Below, one piece after another: positions 35,708 to 48,344 of a stretch of DNA of 64,000 nt (its first letter is position 1; every line of letters begins with the position of its first letter). The translations under genes were made by a program, and so were the position numbers. This stretch comes from an uncultured Candidatus Rokubacteria bacterium. Lineage in GTDB: Bacteria > Methylomirabilota > Methylomirabilia > Rokubacteriales > CSP1-6. Below the pieces are notes generated by a model, which saw only the letters and a list, made by a program, of their open reading frames with translations, made no database searches and was not told the origin of the DNA. Where the stretch lies: positions 1 through 64,000 of the forward strand of contig CAVXJS010000017.1 of assembly GCA_963762145.1 (NCBI GenBank), read 5' to 3'.

Positions 35708-35754
35708 TATTGGACCTAGGTCCACTACCCGATCCCCGGCCGAGCGGCTAGCGT
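35708..35754 (+). promoter_or_regulatory. Palindromic box and -10 element upstream of groES
   Basis: TATTGGACCTAGGTCCACTA 35708-35727; TAGCGT at 35749 (31.5 bp from centre). Confidence 0.8.
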
Positions 35755-35776
35755 GACGGTGGGAGGGACCGAGACC

Positions 35777-36085
35777 ATGGCTCAAGCAAAACAGATGACA
35801 CTACACCCACTGCACGACCGTGTCCTCGTCAGGCGGATCGAGGACGAACCGGCTCGCCGCGGCGCCATCATCATCCCGGACAGCGCGAAGGAGAAGCCCC
35901 AGGAGGGCAAGGTCATCGCGGTCGGCAAGGGCCGAGTGTCCGAGGCCGGCAAGAAGACCCCGCTGGACGTCAAGGCCGGGGACCGAGTGCTCTTTGGCAA
36001 GTACTCCGGCAGTGAGGTCAAGGTGAACGGCGAGGATCTCCTCATCATGAAGGAGGAGGACGTCCTCGGCATCCTCGGGGCCTGA
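35777..36085 (+). CDS. groES: Co-chaperonin GroES
   Basis: [38 protein letters not shown]. Confidence 0.97.
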
Positions 36086-36152
36086 TCCCGGGTAGCTCAG
36101 CAGCGCCGTCGCGGTTAGACAGCTCGCCAACATTCGCCGGAGGAACAAATCC

Positions 36153-37775
36153 ATGCCCAAGCAGATTGCATTCAACGAGGAAGCCCGTGCCGCGCTCCTG
36201 CGCGGCGTCAATGTCATCGCCCACGCGGTCAAGGTGACGCTGGGCCCGAAGGGTCGGAACGTCGTGATCGGCAAGAAGTTCGGGAGCCCCGTCATCACCA
36301 AGGACGGCGTGACCGTCGCCAAGGAGATCGAGCTCAAGAATCACTACGAGAACATGGGCGCCCAGATGATCAAGGAGGTCGCGTCCAAGACCTCGGACGT
36401 CGCGGGCGACGGGACCACCACCGCCACCGTCCTCGCCCAGGCCATCTTCCGTGGCGGCCTCAAGAACGTGACCGCGGGCGCCAATCCCATGGGGCTCCAG
36501 CGCGGCATCGACCAGGCGGTCGCGCAGGTGGTCCAGGAGCTGGCCAAGCTGTCGAAGTCGACCAAGGACAAGAAGGAGATCGCCCAGGTCGCTACCATCG
36601 CGGCCAACAACGACCCGACCGTTGGCGCCCTCATCGCCGAGGCCATGGAGAAGGTGGGCAAGGACGGTGTCGTCACCGTCGAGGAAGCCAAGGGGATGGA
36701 GACCACCCTCGACGTCGTCGAGGGACTGCAGTTCGACCGCGGCTACCTCTCACCCTACTTCGTGACCGACGCGGAGCGCATGGAAGCCGTCCTCGAGGAC
36801 TGCCTCATCCTCATCCACGAGAAGAAGCTCAGCGTGATGAAGGACATGCTGCCCCTGCTCGAGCAGGTCGCGCAGTCGGGCAAGCCGATCCTCATCATCG
36901 CCGAGGACATCGAGGGCGAGGCACTGGCCACCCTGGTCGTGAACAAGCTCCGCGGCACCCTGCACGCCGCCGCGGTGAAGGCCCCCGGCTTCGGCGACCG
37001 CCGGAAGGCCATGCTGGAAGACATCGCGATCCTGACCGGCGGCAAGGCCATCACCGAGGAGCTCGGCATCAAGCTCGAGAACCTGAAGCTCGAGGATCTG
37101 GGCCGGGCCAAGAAGATCGTGCTGGACAAGGACAACACCACGGTGATCGACGGGGCCGGCAAGACCGCGGCCATCGAGGGGCGCATCAAGCAGATCCGGG
37201 CCCAGATCGAGGAGACCACCTCGGACTACGACCGCGAGAAGCTGCAGGAACGGCTCGCCAAGCTGGCGGGCGGCGTGGCATTGATCAAGGTCGGGGCCGC
37301 CACCGAGACGGCCATGAAGGAGAAGAAGGCCCGGGTGGAGGACGCCCTCAACGCGACCCGGGCTGCGGTGGAGGAAGGCATCGTGCCGGGCGGCGGGGTC
37401 GCTCTCCTGCGGGCCTCGAAGGTCCTCGACACCCTGAAGCTCTCCGGCGATGAGGCGACCGGCGTCGACCTCGTCCGGCGCGCTCTCGAGGAGCCGCTGC
37501 GGCAGATCGTCCAGAATGCGGGTCTCGAGGGCTCCATCGTCGTCGAGAAGGTCCGGAGCGCCAAGGACGTGGCCTACGGCTTCGACGCCGAGTCGAACGA
37601 GTACGTGGATATGGTGCGGGCCGGAATCATCGACCCGACCAAGGTGGAGCGGGTGGCGCTGCAGCACGCCGCGTCGATCGCTTCACTGCTCCTGACCACC
37701 GAGGCGCTCATCACCGACACCCCGGAGGAGAAGACGGCCATGCCGGCCATGCCGCACGGCGGCGGCGACTTCTAA
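36153..37775 (+). CDS. groEL: Chaperonin GroEL
   Basis: [19 protein letters not shown] motifs; 540 aa; tail MPHGGGDF. Confidence 0.99.
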
Positions 37776-37821
37776 GCTGTCGATGCCAGCCCGGCGGCAC
37801 GGAGCCGGGCGAAGGCAGGCC

Positions 37822-37899
37822 ATGTCGATGAAGAGGGTCTACGCGGTCGCCGTCCTCGTCGTGGTGTTCACGATCCTCGCGTACCTCGAGGCCGGCTAG
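37822..37899 (+). CDS. Possible 25-aa single-TM small protein
   Basis: MSMKRVYAVAVLVVVFTILAYLEAG*, directly after groEL; GC3-rich codons. Confidence 0.4.
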   Translation: MSMKRVYAVAVLVVVFTILAYLEAG

Positions 37900-37908
37900 A
37901 GACGGCGG

Positions 37909-38406
37909 CTACTGGCCCGTTCCGATGGAGACCGCGAAGTTGACGGTCTCCTCCCGGAACGGGGACGGGACGTAGACGAGCTCCAGGCGGATCTCCTTCA
38001 GCCGGTTCGCCCGGAGCGCCTCGACCGGAAAGTCCACGTCCAGGACGTAGGACGCACCCTGGTCGGGGTCGAGCCACTCGTTGCCGTACCGGGTGAACTT
38101 GACGATCGGATCCGTCTGGCCTGCCCCGGGCCGGATCGCCTGCGCCTGGGCATCGATGAACCGGAGCTTGCCCTCGACCAGGCGGACCGTCCGATTCGCG
38201 GATGTATTCTGAAGCCGCAACGTCCCGGTCAGGCGCGCCGGGGAAACCACCCGGTCGGAGCCTTTCTCGACGCGCTCGGTGACCTTCAGGTCGATGACCT
38301 CGCCGGTGATCATCCCGGACTTCACGGTCATCGACGGTGGGGTCACCGGATAGACCTTGTCCTCGATCGTGACTCCACCCCCGGGATGCTCCCGCCATAC
38401 CTTCAT
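37909..38406 (-). CDS. Hypothetical protein
   Basis: 165-aa ORF with coding-like codon bias; beta-rich appearance. Confidence 0.6.
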   Translation of the reverse strand: MKVWREHPGGGVTIEDKVYPVTPPSMTVKSGMITGEVIDLKVTERVEKGSDRVVSPARLTGTLRLQNTSANRTVRLVEGKLRFIDAQAQAIRPGAGQTDPIVKFTRYGNEWLDPDQGASYVLDVDFPVEALRANRLKEIRLELVYVPSPFREETVNFAVSIGTGQ

Positions 38407-46608: not shown

Positions 46609-46693
46609 CCATATGGAAGAATCGTGGTGCGGTGCAGCCACGTGACGGGCGCGCCGAGGTGATGGTTCGTCCCGCCAGCTAGGAGGATGAGCG

Positions 46694-47410
46694 ATGAGAT
46701 CGCTACGGGATCCGATCGGACGTAGCCACCGCGCGCGGTATCGGCGCCGAGGCGCAGCGCTGGTGATCCTGGTTGCCGCGGTTTCGCTCGGCACGCAGCC
46801 CGCTCTTTCCGGCGACGCCGTGAAGGATGTGCCGCCGACCGCGACCGCGGGTCGCGTCCGACCCATCGATCTGGTCAAGGCGTCCGTCTCGCAGGTGCTG
46901 GCGGTCGCGCAGTCGCGCACGGCCGTCAGCCGGGAGAGCGGCCAGCTCAGGGCCGAGATTCGGCGCGTCGCCGACGGGTTGTTCGACTTCAAGGAGATGG
47001 CGCGGCTGAGCCTGTCGCGGCATTGGAGCGGGCAGTCGATCCGGGAACAGGAGGAGTTTGTCGGGCTGTTCACCGAGCTGCTTGAGCGATCCTTCCTGTC
47101 GACGATCGAGAGCTATGCGGGAGAGAAGATCACGTTCCTGAGCGAGTCGATCGACGGCTCGTACGCGCAGGTGCGGAGCCGGATCACCACCGAACGGCGG
47201 ATGGACATCTCGATCGACTACCGGCTCATCGACCGGGGCGACCGGTGGGAAGTGTATGACGTGGTGCTCGATGGCGTGAGTCTCGTGTCCAACTACCGGG
47301 GTCAGTTCAACTCGATTATCCGGACATCGTCCTTCGGTGACCTGCTGACGAGGATGAGAATCAAGCAGGTCGAGGCGCGCGTGATTCCGCGGGTAGGTCG
47401 CGGGTCGTGA
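46694..47410 (+). CDS. MlaC/Ttg2D family phospholipid-binding periplasmic protein
   Basis: FDFKEMARLSL, W.VYDVVLDGVSLVSNYRGQF; signal peptide; AGGAGG RBS. Confidence 0.9.
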   Translation: MRSLRDPIGRSHRARYRRRGAALVILVAAVSLGTQPALSGDAVKDVPPTATAGRVRPIDLVKASVSQVLAVAQSRTAVSRESGQLRAEIRRVADGLFDFKEMARLSLSRHWSGQSIREQEEFVGLFTELLERSFLSTIESYAGEKITFLSESIDGSYAQVRSRITTERRMDISIDYRLIDRGDRWEVYDVVLDGVSLVSNYRGQFNSIIRTSSFGDLLTRMRIKQVEARVIPRVGRGS

Positions 47411-47697
47411 CCGTGGCCGGGGTGGCGGTCGGAGCGCTGGTCATGACCGCGCTGACCCTGGGGACGGGCGTGGCGATCGGGCGGAGCAAGCCGGCGTGCG
47501 ATGCGGTGGGCCGGATGATGACCCCGGAGGATGCGGAGGGCCAGGTGGTGAAGGTGGAGCCGGGCCGGAGCCGCTTCAGCGTGCGAGAGTCCGATGGCCT
47601 GATCCACGAGTTCCGGGCATCTCCCGAGACGCTTCGGGACCTGAAGGTCGGGGACCGCATCGAGGTGAAGCTCTGGGAAGCGTCGAGGTGTCCCTGA
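47407..47697 (+). CDS. Small exported OB-fold-like hypothetical protein
   Basis: Signal/TM segment, EGQVVKV...LKVGDRIEV; GTGA overlap with mlaC. Confidence 0.6.
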   Translation: MTVAGVAVGALVMTALTLGTGVAIGRSKPACDAVGRMMTPEDAEGQVVKVEPGRSRFSVRESDGLIHEFRASPETLRDLKVGDRIEVKLWEASRCP

Positions 47698-47749
47698 CCG
47701 CGGGTCAAGCGACCGGATGAGCGGTGCGCACGTACATCTCCGGGGACGG

Positions 47750-47930
47750 ATGTGCTCGCCAGCGAGCTGCGCGCCATCTCGCGGAAGTCGAAGAGGTTGT
47801 CGGCGACCTCCCGGAGCAACGCGCGCCGGGCCACGAGGTTGGGCCGGCCACGGAGATCCGGCCTGGTCACGATCTCGATGACCTCCGCGACCGCCGACTG
47901 GACCCGCTCGAGTGGGGTGCGGCCTCGAGC
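47750..47930 (-). pseudogene. Fragment of a second MlaC-like gene
   Basis: LERVQSAVAEVIEIV...LLREVADNLFDFREMARSSL, similar to IRRVADGLFDFKEMARLSL. Confidence 0.6.
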
Positions 47931-47963
47931 GGACGCACAGCCGCTAGCCCCTGCGGTCGGAGG

Positions 47964-48260
47964 CTAGTCCTTCTTGATCTCCCTGGCCGTCCCGCGCGCG
48001 TCTTGCTTGGTGTCCCGGCTGTCCTGCCGGCACTCAGACCGCGTCTTCTCATCCCCCTTCTTGCAGTCCGCCTTCTCGGTCCGTGCGTCCTGGCGGCCAT
48101 CCTGCTTGGTGTCTCGGGAGTCCTTCCGATCACCCTGCCGGTCGTCTCGCCGCTCCTTCGACTGGGTTTGCGCATATCCGACGATGGGCGTGGTGGCAAG
48201 GCCCGGCATCGTTAGCGCCAAGGTCAAGATGCCAACTCGAAGACGCCCTTTCCATTTCAT
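47964..48260 (-). CDS. Secreted hydrophilic protein with 11-mer repeats
   Basis: AAGGAG RBS; signal peptide; RKDSRDTKQDG/RQDARTEKADC/RQDSRDTKQDA. Confidence 0.8.
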   Translation of the reverse strand: MKWKGRLRVGILTLALTMPGLATTPIVGYAQTQSKERRDDRQGDRKDSRDTKQDGRQDARTEKADCKKGDEKTRSECRQDSRDTKQDARGTAREIKKD

Positions 48261-48297
48261 GCGGGGGCTCCTTTCTCGAGAGCACGACTGTCAGAGA

Positions 48298-48344
48298 ACT
48301 GTGGAAGGGGTCCGTCTCGGCGGCAATAGGACCTTGGTCGTAGC
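48298..48344 (-). promoter_or_regulatory. Palindromic box and -10-like element upstream of the 48260 gene
   Basis: AATAGGACCTTGGTCGTAGC 48325-48344; minus-strand CACAGT starts at 48303 (31.5 bp). Confidence 0.7.

Follow-up and report, generated by a model that had tools for sequence, protein, structure and literature searches.

The DNA analysed here is a window of 64,000 nucleotides, positions 1-64000 of contig C17, from a Rokubacteria draft genome of 6.26 Mb with 70% G+C in 25 contigs. This genome is labelled G000 and its contigs carry C-numbers, while loci from other genomes and genomes of the same phylum are given as L- and G-numbers, respectively. The window encodes a two-component response regulator together with a lone receiver, a histidine kinase, an accessory GroES-GroEL pair, a Crp/Fnr-family regulator, an MlaC protein and several small proteins (Table 1). 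A 20-bp palindrome, yATwGGACCwwGGTCCwATr, recurs at these genes and is referred to below as the box. A sequence-only reading of the window had listed eight such 20-mers as the sites of one hidden regulon. All eight of them are present. The reading had described the motif by its GGAC-N4-GTCC core. This bare core occurs 4 times in the window where 2.78 matches would be expected, a count reached by 34 of 100 shuffles. Because the core is not enriched in the window, it was dropped as evidence. The full 20-bp palindrome is the non-random signal.

A weight matrix for the box was trained iteratively on G000, and three simulated Markov-3 genomes served as the null. In G000 the matrix found 82 sites of at least 14 bits, 65-66 of at least 17 bits and 54 of at least 20 bits. 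At the first threshold the simulations yielded 15, 14 and 10 sites, at the second 0, 1 and 1, and at the third none. The genome-wide count, which had been proposed as a check, is therefore not at background level. The string GGACCWWGGTCC occurs 18 times in the genome, nearly always within the longer 20-bp palindrome. The sites form islands on contigs C9, C10, C11, C15, C17 and C19. Gene calls were made crudely by a script based on G+C at third codon positions, and 49 of 66 sites lie wholly outside these calls, though 68% of the genome is called coding.

The box stands in a fixed register to a -10-like hexamer. Measured from the dyad over the 132 flanks of 66 sites in G000, TANNNT starts at 31.5 bp in 26 cases and at 32.5 bp in 8, and each of the 62 other offsets between 10.5 and 73.5 bp holds 0-2. 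In other genomes (130 sites, 260 flanks) the hexamer was found 71 times at 31.5 bp, 27 times at 32.5 bp and 13 times at 30.5 bp, with 0-5 elsewhere; TAGAGT (20), TAGCGT (14) and TAGATT (12) were the commonest forms there. The position relative to the -10 element, the other check proposed for the motif, is thus not random, as 34 of 132 flanks in G000 and 98 of 260 in other genomes fall in the 31.5/32.5-bp peak. All the hexamers listed by the sequence-only reading, seven at 31.5 bp and one at 32.5 bp, are present in the window; a second one at box 42116, facing the kinase gene, had been missed. Among the 26 G000 promoters with the hexamer at 31.5 bp, information stays below 0.5 bit at each position between box and hexamer, and therefore no -35 element is present, in line with what had been noticed in the window. 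Of the two box halves, the promoter-proximal one shows the stronger conservation in these promoters (T13 in 25/26, T18 in 26/26).

When the hexamer is taken as -12 to -7, the dyad falls at -43.5. A box centred there would represent the geometry of a class II activator, as the earlier reading had proposed: the site overlaps the -35 region, keeps a fixed register to the -10 element and goes with an absent -35. The arrangement resembles the class II sites of CRP and FNR at -41.5, where a dimer site also covers the -35 region in a fixed register without a -35 hexamer. A centre at -41.5 corresponds to 29.5 bp from dyad to hexamer start. In the present promoters this distance is 31.5 bp, which puts the centre about two bp farther upstream, and the proposed binder has a LuxR/GerE helix-turn-helix (HTH), not the CRP fold. 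Start codons of long open reading frames (ORFs) crowd right behind the hexamer: in G000, 11 of 35 lie at 6-10 nt, and other genomes have 31 of 109 at 5-9 nt and none at 10-13 nt. This pattern fits leaderless mRNAs and indirectly supports the hexamer as a working -10. Many box-driven genes start 5-9 nt past the hexamer with no space for a Shine-Dalgarno sequence, hinting that leaderless mRNAs may be common in this regulon and lineage. The hyp111 mRNA is probably leaderless, since its ATG at 42170 starts 7 nt behind TAGAGT.

The regulator encoded in the window contains a Response_reg domain (92.6 bits, residues 8-117) and a GerE domain (61.3 bits, residues 143-198) according to Pfam. Among proteins of solved structure it is closest to StyR (1yio, E 2.5e-53, residues 5-198) and FixJ (5xso, 7e-37), and DevR (3c3w) reaches only 5e-12. 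In the alignment with StyR it shows DDD at 12-14, LLLDVRMPG against LVLDMRMPG and LTKP against LPKP. We take the aligned DDD, the Asp of LLLDVRMPG, the Thr and the Lys to be the acidic pocket, the phospho-acceptor Asp, the conserved Thr and the Lys, so that by this alignment the conserved receiver residues are all carried. The top NCBIfam model is FixJ (NF006900), with 189.8 bits below the 255-bit cut-off. By sequence the protein is a member of the FixJ subfamily and not a FixJ equivalog. As StyR and FixJ are far ahead of DevR and FixJ is the top model, the FixJ-type label given by the earlier reading is right, and its comparison with DosR is only an analogy. The kinase matches FixL (NF041777) with 193.1 bits, below the 850-bit cut-off, and the match is confined to the kinase core (residues 371-616). 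This core is FixL-like (PDB 4gcz, E 3e-48) and of the HisKA rather than the HisKA_3 kind, and the sensor consists of two GAF domains, not of haem-PAS. A similarity search placed the closest relatives of the regulator gene in metagenome-assembled genomes (MAGs) titled Rokubacteria, Rokuibacteriota or Methylomirabilota.

The distribution of the box in other genomes points to the adjacent regulator as its most likely binder. Eighty loci were fetched by similarity to this regulator, covering 580 kb of DNA with 40-71% G+C from MAGs titled as several phyla, some of which may be mis-binned. These loci hold 142 sites of at least 15 bits, and 69 of the 80 have at least one; the whole of G000 holds 82 sites of at least 14 bits in its 6.26 Mb. 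In 46 of the 80 loci a box lies within -30 to +250 of the regulator 3' end. A lone receiver gene directly follows the regulator in 41 loci, and in 32 of these 41 the box is situated between both genes. Homologues of the GAF kinase were found in 43 loci, usually immediately upstream, of GroES in 15, of MlaC in 10 and of the Crp protein in none. In a second sample of 151 genomes of the phylum the regulator family was counted present at E 1e-40 or better, which was the case in 57. The exact 14-mer TGGACCWWGGTCCA has at least two copies in 29 of these 57 genomes and in 0 of the 94 genomes without the regulator, of which 4 have a single copy. The sample includes one unpublished genome, G101, in which the regulator is present and the 14-mer matches once; leaving it out keeps the figures unchanged. 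G000 itself possesses three full-length paralogues, at C17:39053, C11:535730 (56% identity) and C15:37548 (52%), and each of them lies within a box island.

The boxes fall into two subtypes which follow the paralogues. Half-sites of kind A have T at box position 4 (ATTGGACC or AGTGGACC) and those of kind B a purine (ATAGGACC, ATGGGACC or ATAAGACC). Whole sites in G000 are mostly homotypic, with 19 AA, 34 BB and 9 mixed against about 29 mixed expected. Islands on C17, C9 and C19 are of type A and those on C15 and C11 of type B. By the orthologues of the C17 regulator, 131 half-sites are A, 24 B and 3 other, and by 28 further loci fetched around C15/C11-type regulators they are 6, 41 and 7. The recognition helix, E-K-T-V-K-V-H-R-x-R-V-M, differs in step: 69 of 80 C17-type regulators have Ala at position 180 and 26 of 28 C15/C11-type ones have Gly, while K176, R179 and K185 are invariant in both groups. 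Subtype A boxes thus pair with Ala180 regulators and subtype B boxes with Gly180 regulators, a clear signal of paralogue insulation in the box/regulator pair. On this basis it is quite likely that G000 harbours at least two insulated versions of the kinase-regulator-box system. Sites 35708, 38911, 40118, 42116 and 42950, being A or mostly A, probably answer to the adjacent regulator, whereas the paralogues on C15 or C11 are the probable regulators of the type B sites 11316 and 48325. Site 46562 is a plausible weak candidate because TAGAGT is present and MlaC is a recurrent target. The single regulon of eight sites in the sequence-only reading accordingly has to be divided. Its proposal that the co-located regulator binds the box is supported by comparative evidence (clustering, phyletic pattern and covariation), which makes this regulator the best candidate binder, though not for all eight sites. 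The two type B boxes of the window have a near-identical 17-mer in common (ATAGGACCTTGGTCGTA), and both show a degenerate second half and non-canonical hexamers.

Table 1. Boxes, -10-like hexamers and genes in the window
Feature	Positions	Strand	Description
Box, subtype A, TATTGGACCTAGGTCCACTA	35708..35727		30.2 bits; predicted to drive groES-groEL rightwards
Box, subtype A	38911..38930		30.1 bits; predicted to drive hyp121-hyp165 leftwards
Box	40118..40137		20.8 bits; good half toward receiver gene; overlaps 3' end of kinase gene
Box, subtype A	42116..42135		24.6 bits; divergent predicted promoters, hyp111 (+) and kinase (-)
Box, subtype A	42950..42969		22.8 bits; upstream of genes for 49-aa protein, Crp/Fnr and hybrid kinase
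Weak site	46562..46581		11.6 bits, below threshold; only promoter-proximal half good, distal half apparently one base short
Box, subtype B, AATAGGACCTTGGTCGTAGC	48325..48344		21.5 bits; faces gene of 98-aa protein
Box, subtype B, CATAGGACCTTGGTCGTACT	11316..11335		22.8 bits; faces PMT_2-like glycosyltransferase gene
-10-like TAGCGT	35749-35754	+	31.5 bp from centre of box 35708; predicted start near 35761
-10-like TACACT	38883-38888	-	32.5 bp from centre of box 38911
-10-like TACGGT	40091-40096	-	31.5 bp from centre of box 40118
-10-like TAGAGT	42157-42162	+	31.5 bp from centre of box 42116; faces hyp111
-10-like TAGCGT	42089-42094	-	31.5 bp from centre of box 42116; faces kinase gene; newly added
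-10-like TAGACT	42991-42996	+	31.5 bp from centre of box 42950
-10-like TAGAGT	46603-46608	+	31.5 bp from centre of weak site 46562; faces MlaC gene
Hexamer CACAGT	48298-48303	-	box 48325; not TANNNT
Hexamer TAGTAC	11289-11294	-	box 11316; not TANNNT
PMT_2-like glycosyltransferase	9653-11242	-	behind box 11316
Accessory groES	35777-36085	+	Pfam/NCBIfam; ATG 35777 behind GGGAGGG Shine-Dalgarno
Accessory groEL	36153-37775	+	Pfam/NCBIfam
hyp165	37909-38406	-	no Pfam or NCBIfam family; homologues in 6/80 regulator loci
hyp121	38476-38841	-	no Pfam or NCBIfam family; homologues in 8/80 regulator loci
Response regulator, 209 aa	39053-39682	+	receiver (REC) + GerE/LuxR HTH, FixJ/StyR subfamily, Ala180; Pfam, NCBIfam, solved relatives
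Single-domain receiver	39687-40070	-	FixJ-like (84.7 bits to FixJ model); predicted box-driven target
Histidine kinase	40126-42003	-	GAF-GAF sensor + FixL-like HisKA/HATPase core; proposed cognate kinase
hyp111	42170-42505	+	no family; homologues in 4/80 regulator loci
hyp140	42508-42930	+	no family; homologues in 7/80 regulator loci
49-aa Cys/His small protein	43017-43166	+	downstream of box 42950
Crp/Fnr-family regulator	43183-43836	+	Pfam/NCBIfam; downstream of box 42950
GAF hybrid kinase	43881-45593	+	downstream of box 42950
Fatty-acid desaturase	45606-46328		Pfam/NCBIfam
MlaC	46694-47410	+	behind weak site 46562
Secreted, highly charged 98-aa protein	47964-48260	-	behind box 48325

The genes behind the boxes were scanned with Pfam, taking only the first ORF behind each box (34 targets in G000 and 103 in other genomes). 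In G000 they include four more MlaC paralogues, OmpA-collagen, DUF3300, DUF2147, DUF4410, Lnb_N, bestrophin-like, SulP, ion channel, HlyD, PilZ, PAS, TPR, CMD and molybdo-oxidoreductase proteins and a lone receiver, and 13 of the 34 have no family. The 103 targets of other genomes, among which neighbours of the regulator are over-represented because the loci were chosen around it, comprise 32 lone receivers, 7 GroES, 6 MlaC, 6 Transgly_assoc (YeaQ/YmgE type), 4 GAF proteins or kinases, 2 desaturases, 2 Gly-zipper proteins and 2 cases of the regulator itself. BON, HdeA, Fe/Mn SOD, polyphosphate kinase, OmpA-collagen, DksA-type zinc finger, PRC and CusF occur once each, and 34 of the 103 are without family. 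None of the first ORFs in either set encodes Usp, Hsp20 (alpha-crystallin) or nitroreductase. These families suggest a response to general, osmotic or envelope stress rather than the dormancy set of DosR. Of the stress or dormancy programme suggested by the sequence-only reading, the stress part therefore fits the families found and the dormancy label does not.

Considered together, the motif as observed, the fixed spacing, the proximity of boxes to regulator genes and the covariation suggest that the palindrome is probably the operator of the FixJ/StyR-type regulator family, serving class II activation of stress and envelope genes. From these we infer a route of phosphorylation, binding, activation and feedback. 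The cytoplasmic GAF-GAF kinase would phosphorylate the neighbouring regulator, and a dimer of the regulator would bind the box about 43.5 bp upstream of the start, where it would replace the -35 element. The bound dimer would recruit housekeeping RNA polymerase to the TAGnnT -10 in the class II manner. In the window this would switch on the extra groESL, the small proteins of no family, the kinase gene, the Crp/Fnr regulator and probably MlaC. The induced lone receiver would probably drain, compete for or block phosphotransfer and so act as negative feedback, the induced kinase gene would give positive feedback, and the Crp/Fnr regulator would extend the cascade.

Several observations weigh against this reading. 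The counts in G000 are partly circular because the weight matrix was trained on that genome, and 17 of the 66 sites overlap the crude gene calls. No box of at least 15 bits was found in the DNA fetched for 11 of the 80 orthologue loci, and the exact 14-mer is absent from G082, G012, G084, G021, G028, G114 and G126 despite a regulator match at least 61% identical. Box 38911 has no correctly spaced TANNNT toward the regulator gene, and direct autoregulation of that gene is therefore not evident. The nominal Fisher P of 1e-19 for the subtype covariation overstates the case because related genomes are not independent; its direction is consistent across all sets. The position of the box over the -35 region could also suit a repressor. 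The same regulator would then be mainly a repressor or a dual regulator, covering this region until a signal removes it. In favour of this, groESL operons are classically under repressors, the housekeeping copy here has the CIRCE element (controlling inverted repeat of chaperone expression), and StyR also represses from other sites (PMC2442086). However, no conserved -35-like sequence is available to an unaided polymerase, the promoter-proximal half-site is the better conserved, and the spacing is rigid to one bp, as for a protein-polymerase contact, while repressor operators are usually variable in position. Repression as the main role is hence considered unlikely.

The same one-base register, kept both to the -10 hexamer and to start codons, speaks against a non-regulatory repeat, either a REP/MITE-like element (repetitive extragenic palindrome or miniature inverted-repeat transposable element) or a restriction/modification site. 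The perfect palindrome contains two GGWCC, recurs in clusters and has a few identical copies (C10:105577/114774; C8:132129/C14:266673), but across genomes of 40-71% G+C it precedes genes of recurring function and no extended flanking repeat was seen, so that this origin is scarcely credible. Binding by some other factor, with the FixJ-type regulator a mere neighbour or target, is rather improbable. The window's Crp/Fnr protein was one candidate for it, as the box can be read as TTGGA-N6-TCCAA, a 5-N6-5 pattern resembling CRP-type sites, and the Crp gene stands behind box 42950. It was rejected as binder since its homologue is in none of the 80 regulator loci. Moreover, the box subtype covaries with the regulator subfamily and the recognition-helix residue, and more than a single box occurs in none of the 94 genomes that lack the regulator family. 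The version of the sequence-only reading, in which the system is an orthologue of the mycobacterial DosR/DevR dormancy regulon, is very improbable. It draws on the GGAC core at equal distance from the dyad, the 20-bp palindrome, the GAF-GAF kinase and a position near -42.5/-43.5 (PMC3177182). The relationships run otherwise, with the E values favouring StyR and FixJ over DevR by many orders, a FixL-like kinase core with HisKA and the three expected families missing from the 34 + 103 targets scanned; the boxes are mostly single, and two or more tandem boxes are the hallmark of DevR in the same source. An operator of the FixJ/StyR-type family working by class II activation is thus preferred.

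The STY/Tod boxes of StyR and TodS/TodT are presumably 16-bp palindromes with the same central ACC-N2-GGT as the present box; among the papers listed in a search for their strings, none was found to print them. StyS/StyR of Pseudomonas fluorescens ST is like the present system in that StyR is the nearest solved relative of the regulator and its activator site is also close to the start. Phosphorylated StyR dimerises and activates PstyA from the high-affinity, essential STY2 site at about -40, according to PMC2442086. The two systems are unlike in the outer bases of the half-sites and in the sensor, which is GAF-GAF here and a double PAS kinase in StyS. Stress and envelope genes at dozens of promoters stand here against one catabolic operon, and the present promoters show no evident IHF-dependent upstream element.

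FixL/FixJ of Alphaproteobacteria is matched by the top model of the regulator and by the kinase core (193 bits), and the Crp/Fnr gene and the single-domain receiver as predicted box-driven targets mirror FixJ->FixK and FixT. In Caulobacter, the receiver FixT reportedly feeds back on FixL. The present system differs in that both scores are under the curated cut-offs (255, 850), two GAF domains replace the haem-PAS, the regulon is much larger and the Crp gene is not conserved beside the regulator (0/80 loci). The experimentally defined FixJ site, TAAGTAATTTCCCTTA (PMC4999443), is unrelated to the present box.

DosS/DosT-DosR of Mycobacterium is similar in its 20-bp palindrome with GGAC equally far from the dyad and in its GAF-GAF kinase sensor (PMC3177182). 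The DevR C-terminal-domain dimer reads G4G5G6A7C8T9 in each palindrome half, and its primary box at tgs1 lies at -42.5, two or more tandem boxes in helical phase being the rule, as that paper describes. Compared with the DosR box GGGACT-WW-AGTCCC, the core GGAC(C/T)WW(G/A)GTCC is in common, but the present box has T or a purine in place of the flanking G4 and favours C where DevR reads T9. The regulator belongs to another subfamily, the kinase has HisKA and not HisKA_3, the boxes are mostly single and the gene set is another one. The likeness to the DosR box seen by the sequence-only reading is therefore real for the GGAC core and its position and does not extend to kinship (DevR E 5e-12). By sequence comparison the present box matches the StyR, DevR and FixJ sites nowhere beyond the short core.

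No paper giving the box or the regulon was found, and subscription journals and supplements may hold one. A literature search on the exact box strings returned no relevant paper; the sole microbial match was a DosR paper, for GGACT(A/T)3AGTCC strings. Searches by topic, on FixJ-type stress regulation and on response regulators and promoter motifs in Rokubacteria, were likewise fruitless. The system appears to be a regulator-operator pair of familiar type, apparently undescribed and kept in several phyla that have been little studied. Next to nothing is known of how Rokubacteria and similar uncultured soil phyla regulate their genes, and a concrete candidate pair is now at hand, whose predicted regulon counts about 60 promoters in a single genome. 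It brings a promoter grammar (TAGnnT -10, frequent leaderless starts and a box centred near -43.5) that is testable in vitro with one purified protein, and the covariation of Ala/Gly with the base makes it a ready case for how duplicated two-component regulators avoid cross-talk. It is tempting, though somewhat doubtful, to see the kinase-regulator-box unit as the general stress master switch of Rokubacteria and other little-studied lineages, with Ala/Gly keeping paralogues apart. Going by conserved boxes next to orthologues, the other lineages would be several that carry the labels Deltaproteobacteria/Syntrophobacterales, Binatia, Gemmatimonadales, Planctomycetota and Chloroflexota-type MAGs. 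The unit would then fill the role held elsewhere by RpoS, SigB or PhyR-EcfG, and a single Ala/Gly change in the recognition helix, reading one base pair 6.5 bp from the dyad, would insulate the paralogues. A missing master regulator would thereby be named for several phyla, and stress states would become readable from soil metatranscriptomes.

Contigs assembled from RNA libraries (RNA or possibly RNA) were examined across 35400-43400. Their 5' ends and strand are not readable, and no conclusion on transcription starts was drawn from them. Library X7 has a contig over the receiver gene (39684-40074) and one over hyp111 (42187-42525), where X1 and X2 are similar. The hyp165 and hyp121 genes are covered by X7 37635-38857 and X2 37659-38818. 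Behind box 42950 the X1 contig runs from 42996 and the X2 contig from 42981, the latter starting 22 nt upstream of the predicted transcription start. The groEL depth in these contigs comes mostly from other organisms.

The groES-groEL pair of the window is one of several chaperonin loci in G000, which has two more such pairs and one orphan groEL (C10:298827-300939, C10:102060-104048 and C21:1172634-1174235). A perfect CIRCE, the sole one found, precedes only the groESL copy at C10:298904. The groEL at C10:102431-104048 matches as two separate pieces, which could reflect an error of assembly or a frameshift. A gene of the cytochrome P460 family (35287-35601) on the opposite strand is the immediate upstream neighbour of the groES box, and no correctly spaced hexamer at this box faces it. 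Two large proteins of the window are encoded on the minus strand. The 992-aa protein at 11339-14317, ending just before box 11316, contains dCache, HAMP, SpoIIE phosphatase, HATPase_c_2 (RsbW-like) kinase and STAS domains and represents a whole partner-switching module in one chain. The 1167-aa protein at 49439-52942 combines a double zinc ribbon, a class III nucleotidyl cyclase, an AAA_16 ATPase and TPR repeats.

Some boxes in G000 are exact copies of each other. The 20-mers C10:105577 and C10:114774 are identical, as are C8:132129 and C14:266673, and the former pair also has the same TAGACT at equal offset; these may be recent duplications or overlapping contig ends. Other boxes stand 15-46 bp apart, namely C15:39110/39141, C17:70434/70480, C9:699006/699052 and C9:698269/698284, and similar pairs occur in other genomes (L119:3009/3041, L121:2532/2563). 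Paired boxes often serve divergent genes and may allow cooperative binding of two dimers. Genomes of low G+C keep the box as TATAGGACTAAGGTCCAATA or GATTGGACTAAAGTCyTATC, as at L057:2590 (47% G+C, titled Chitinivibrionales) and in L054/L055 (40-42%), and in L057 a perfect TATAAT is situated at the 31.5-bp offset.

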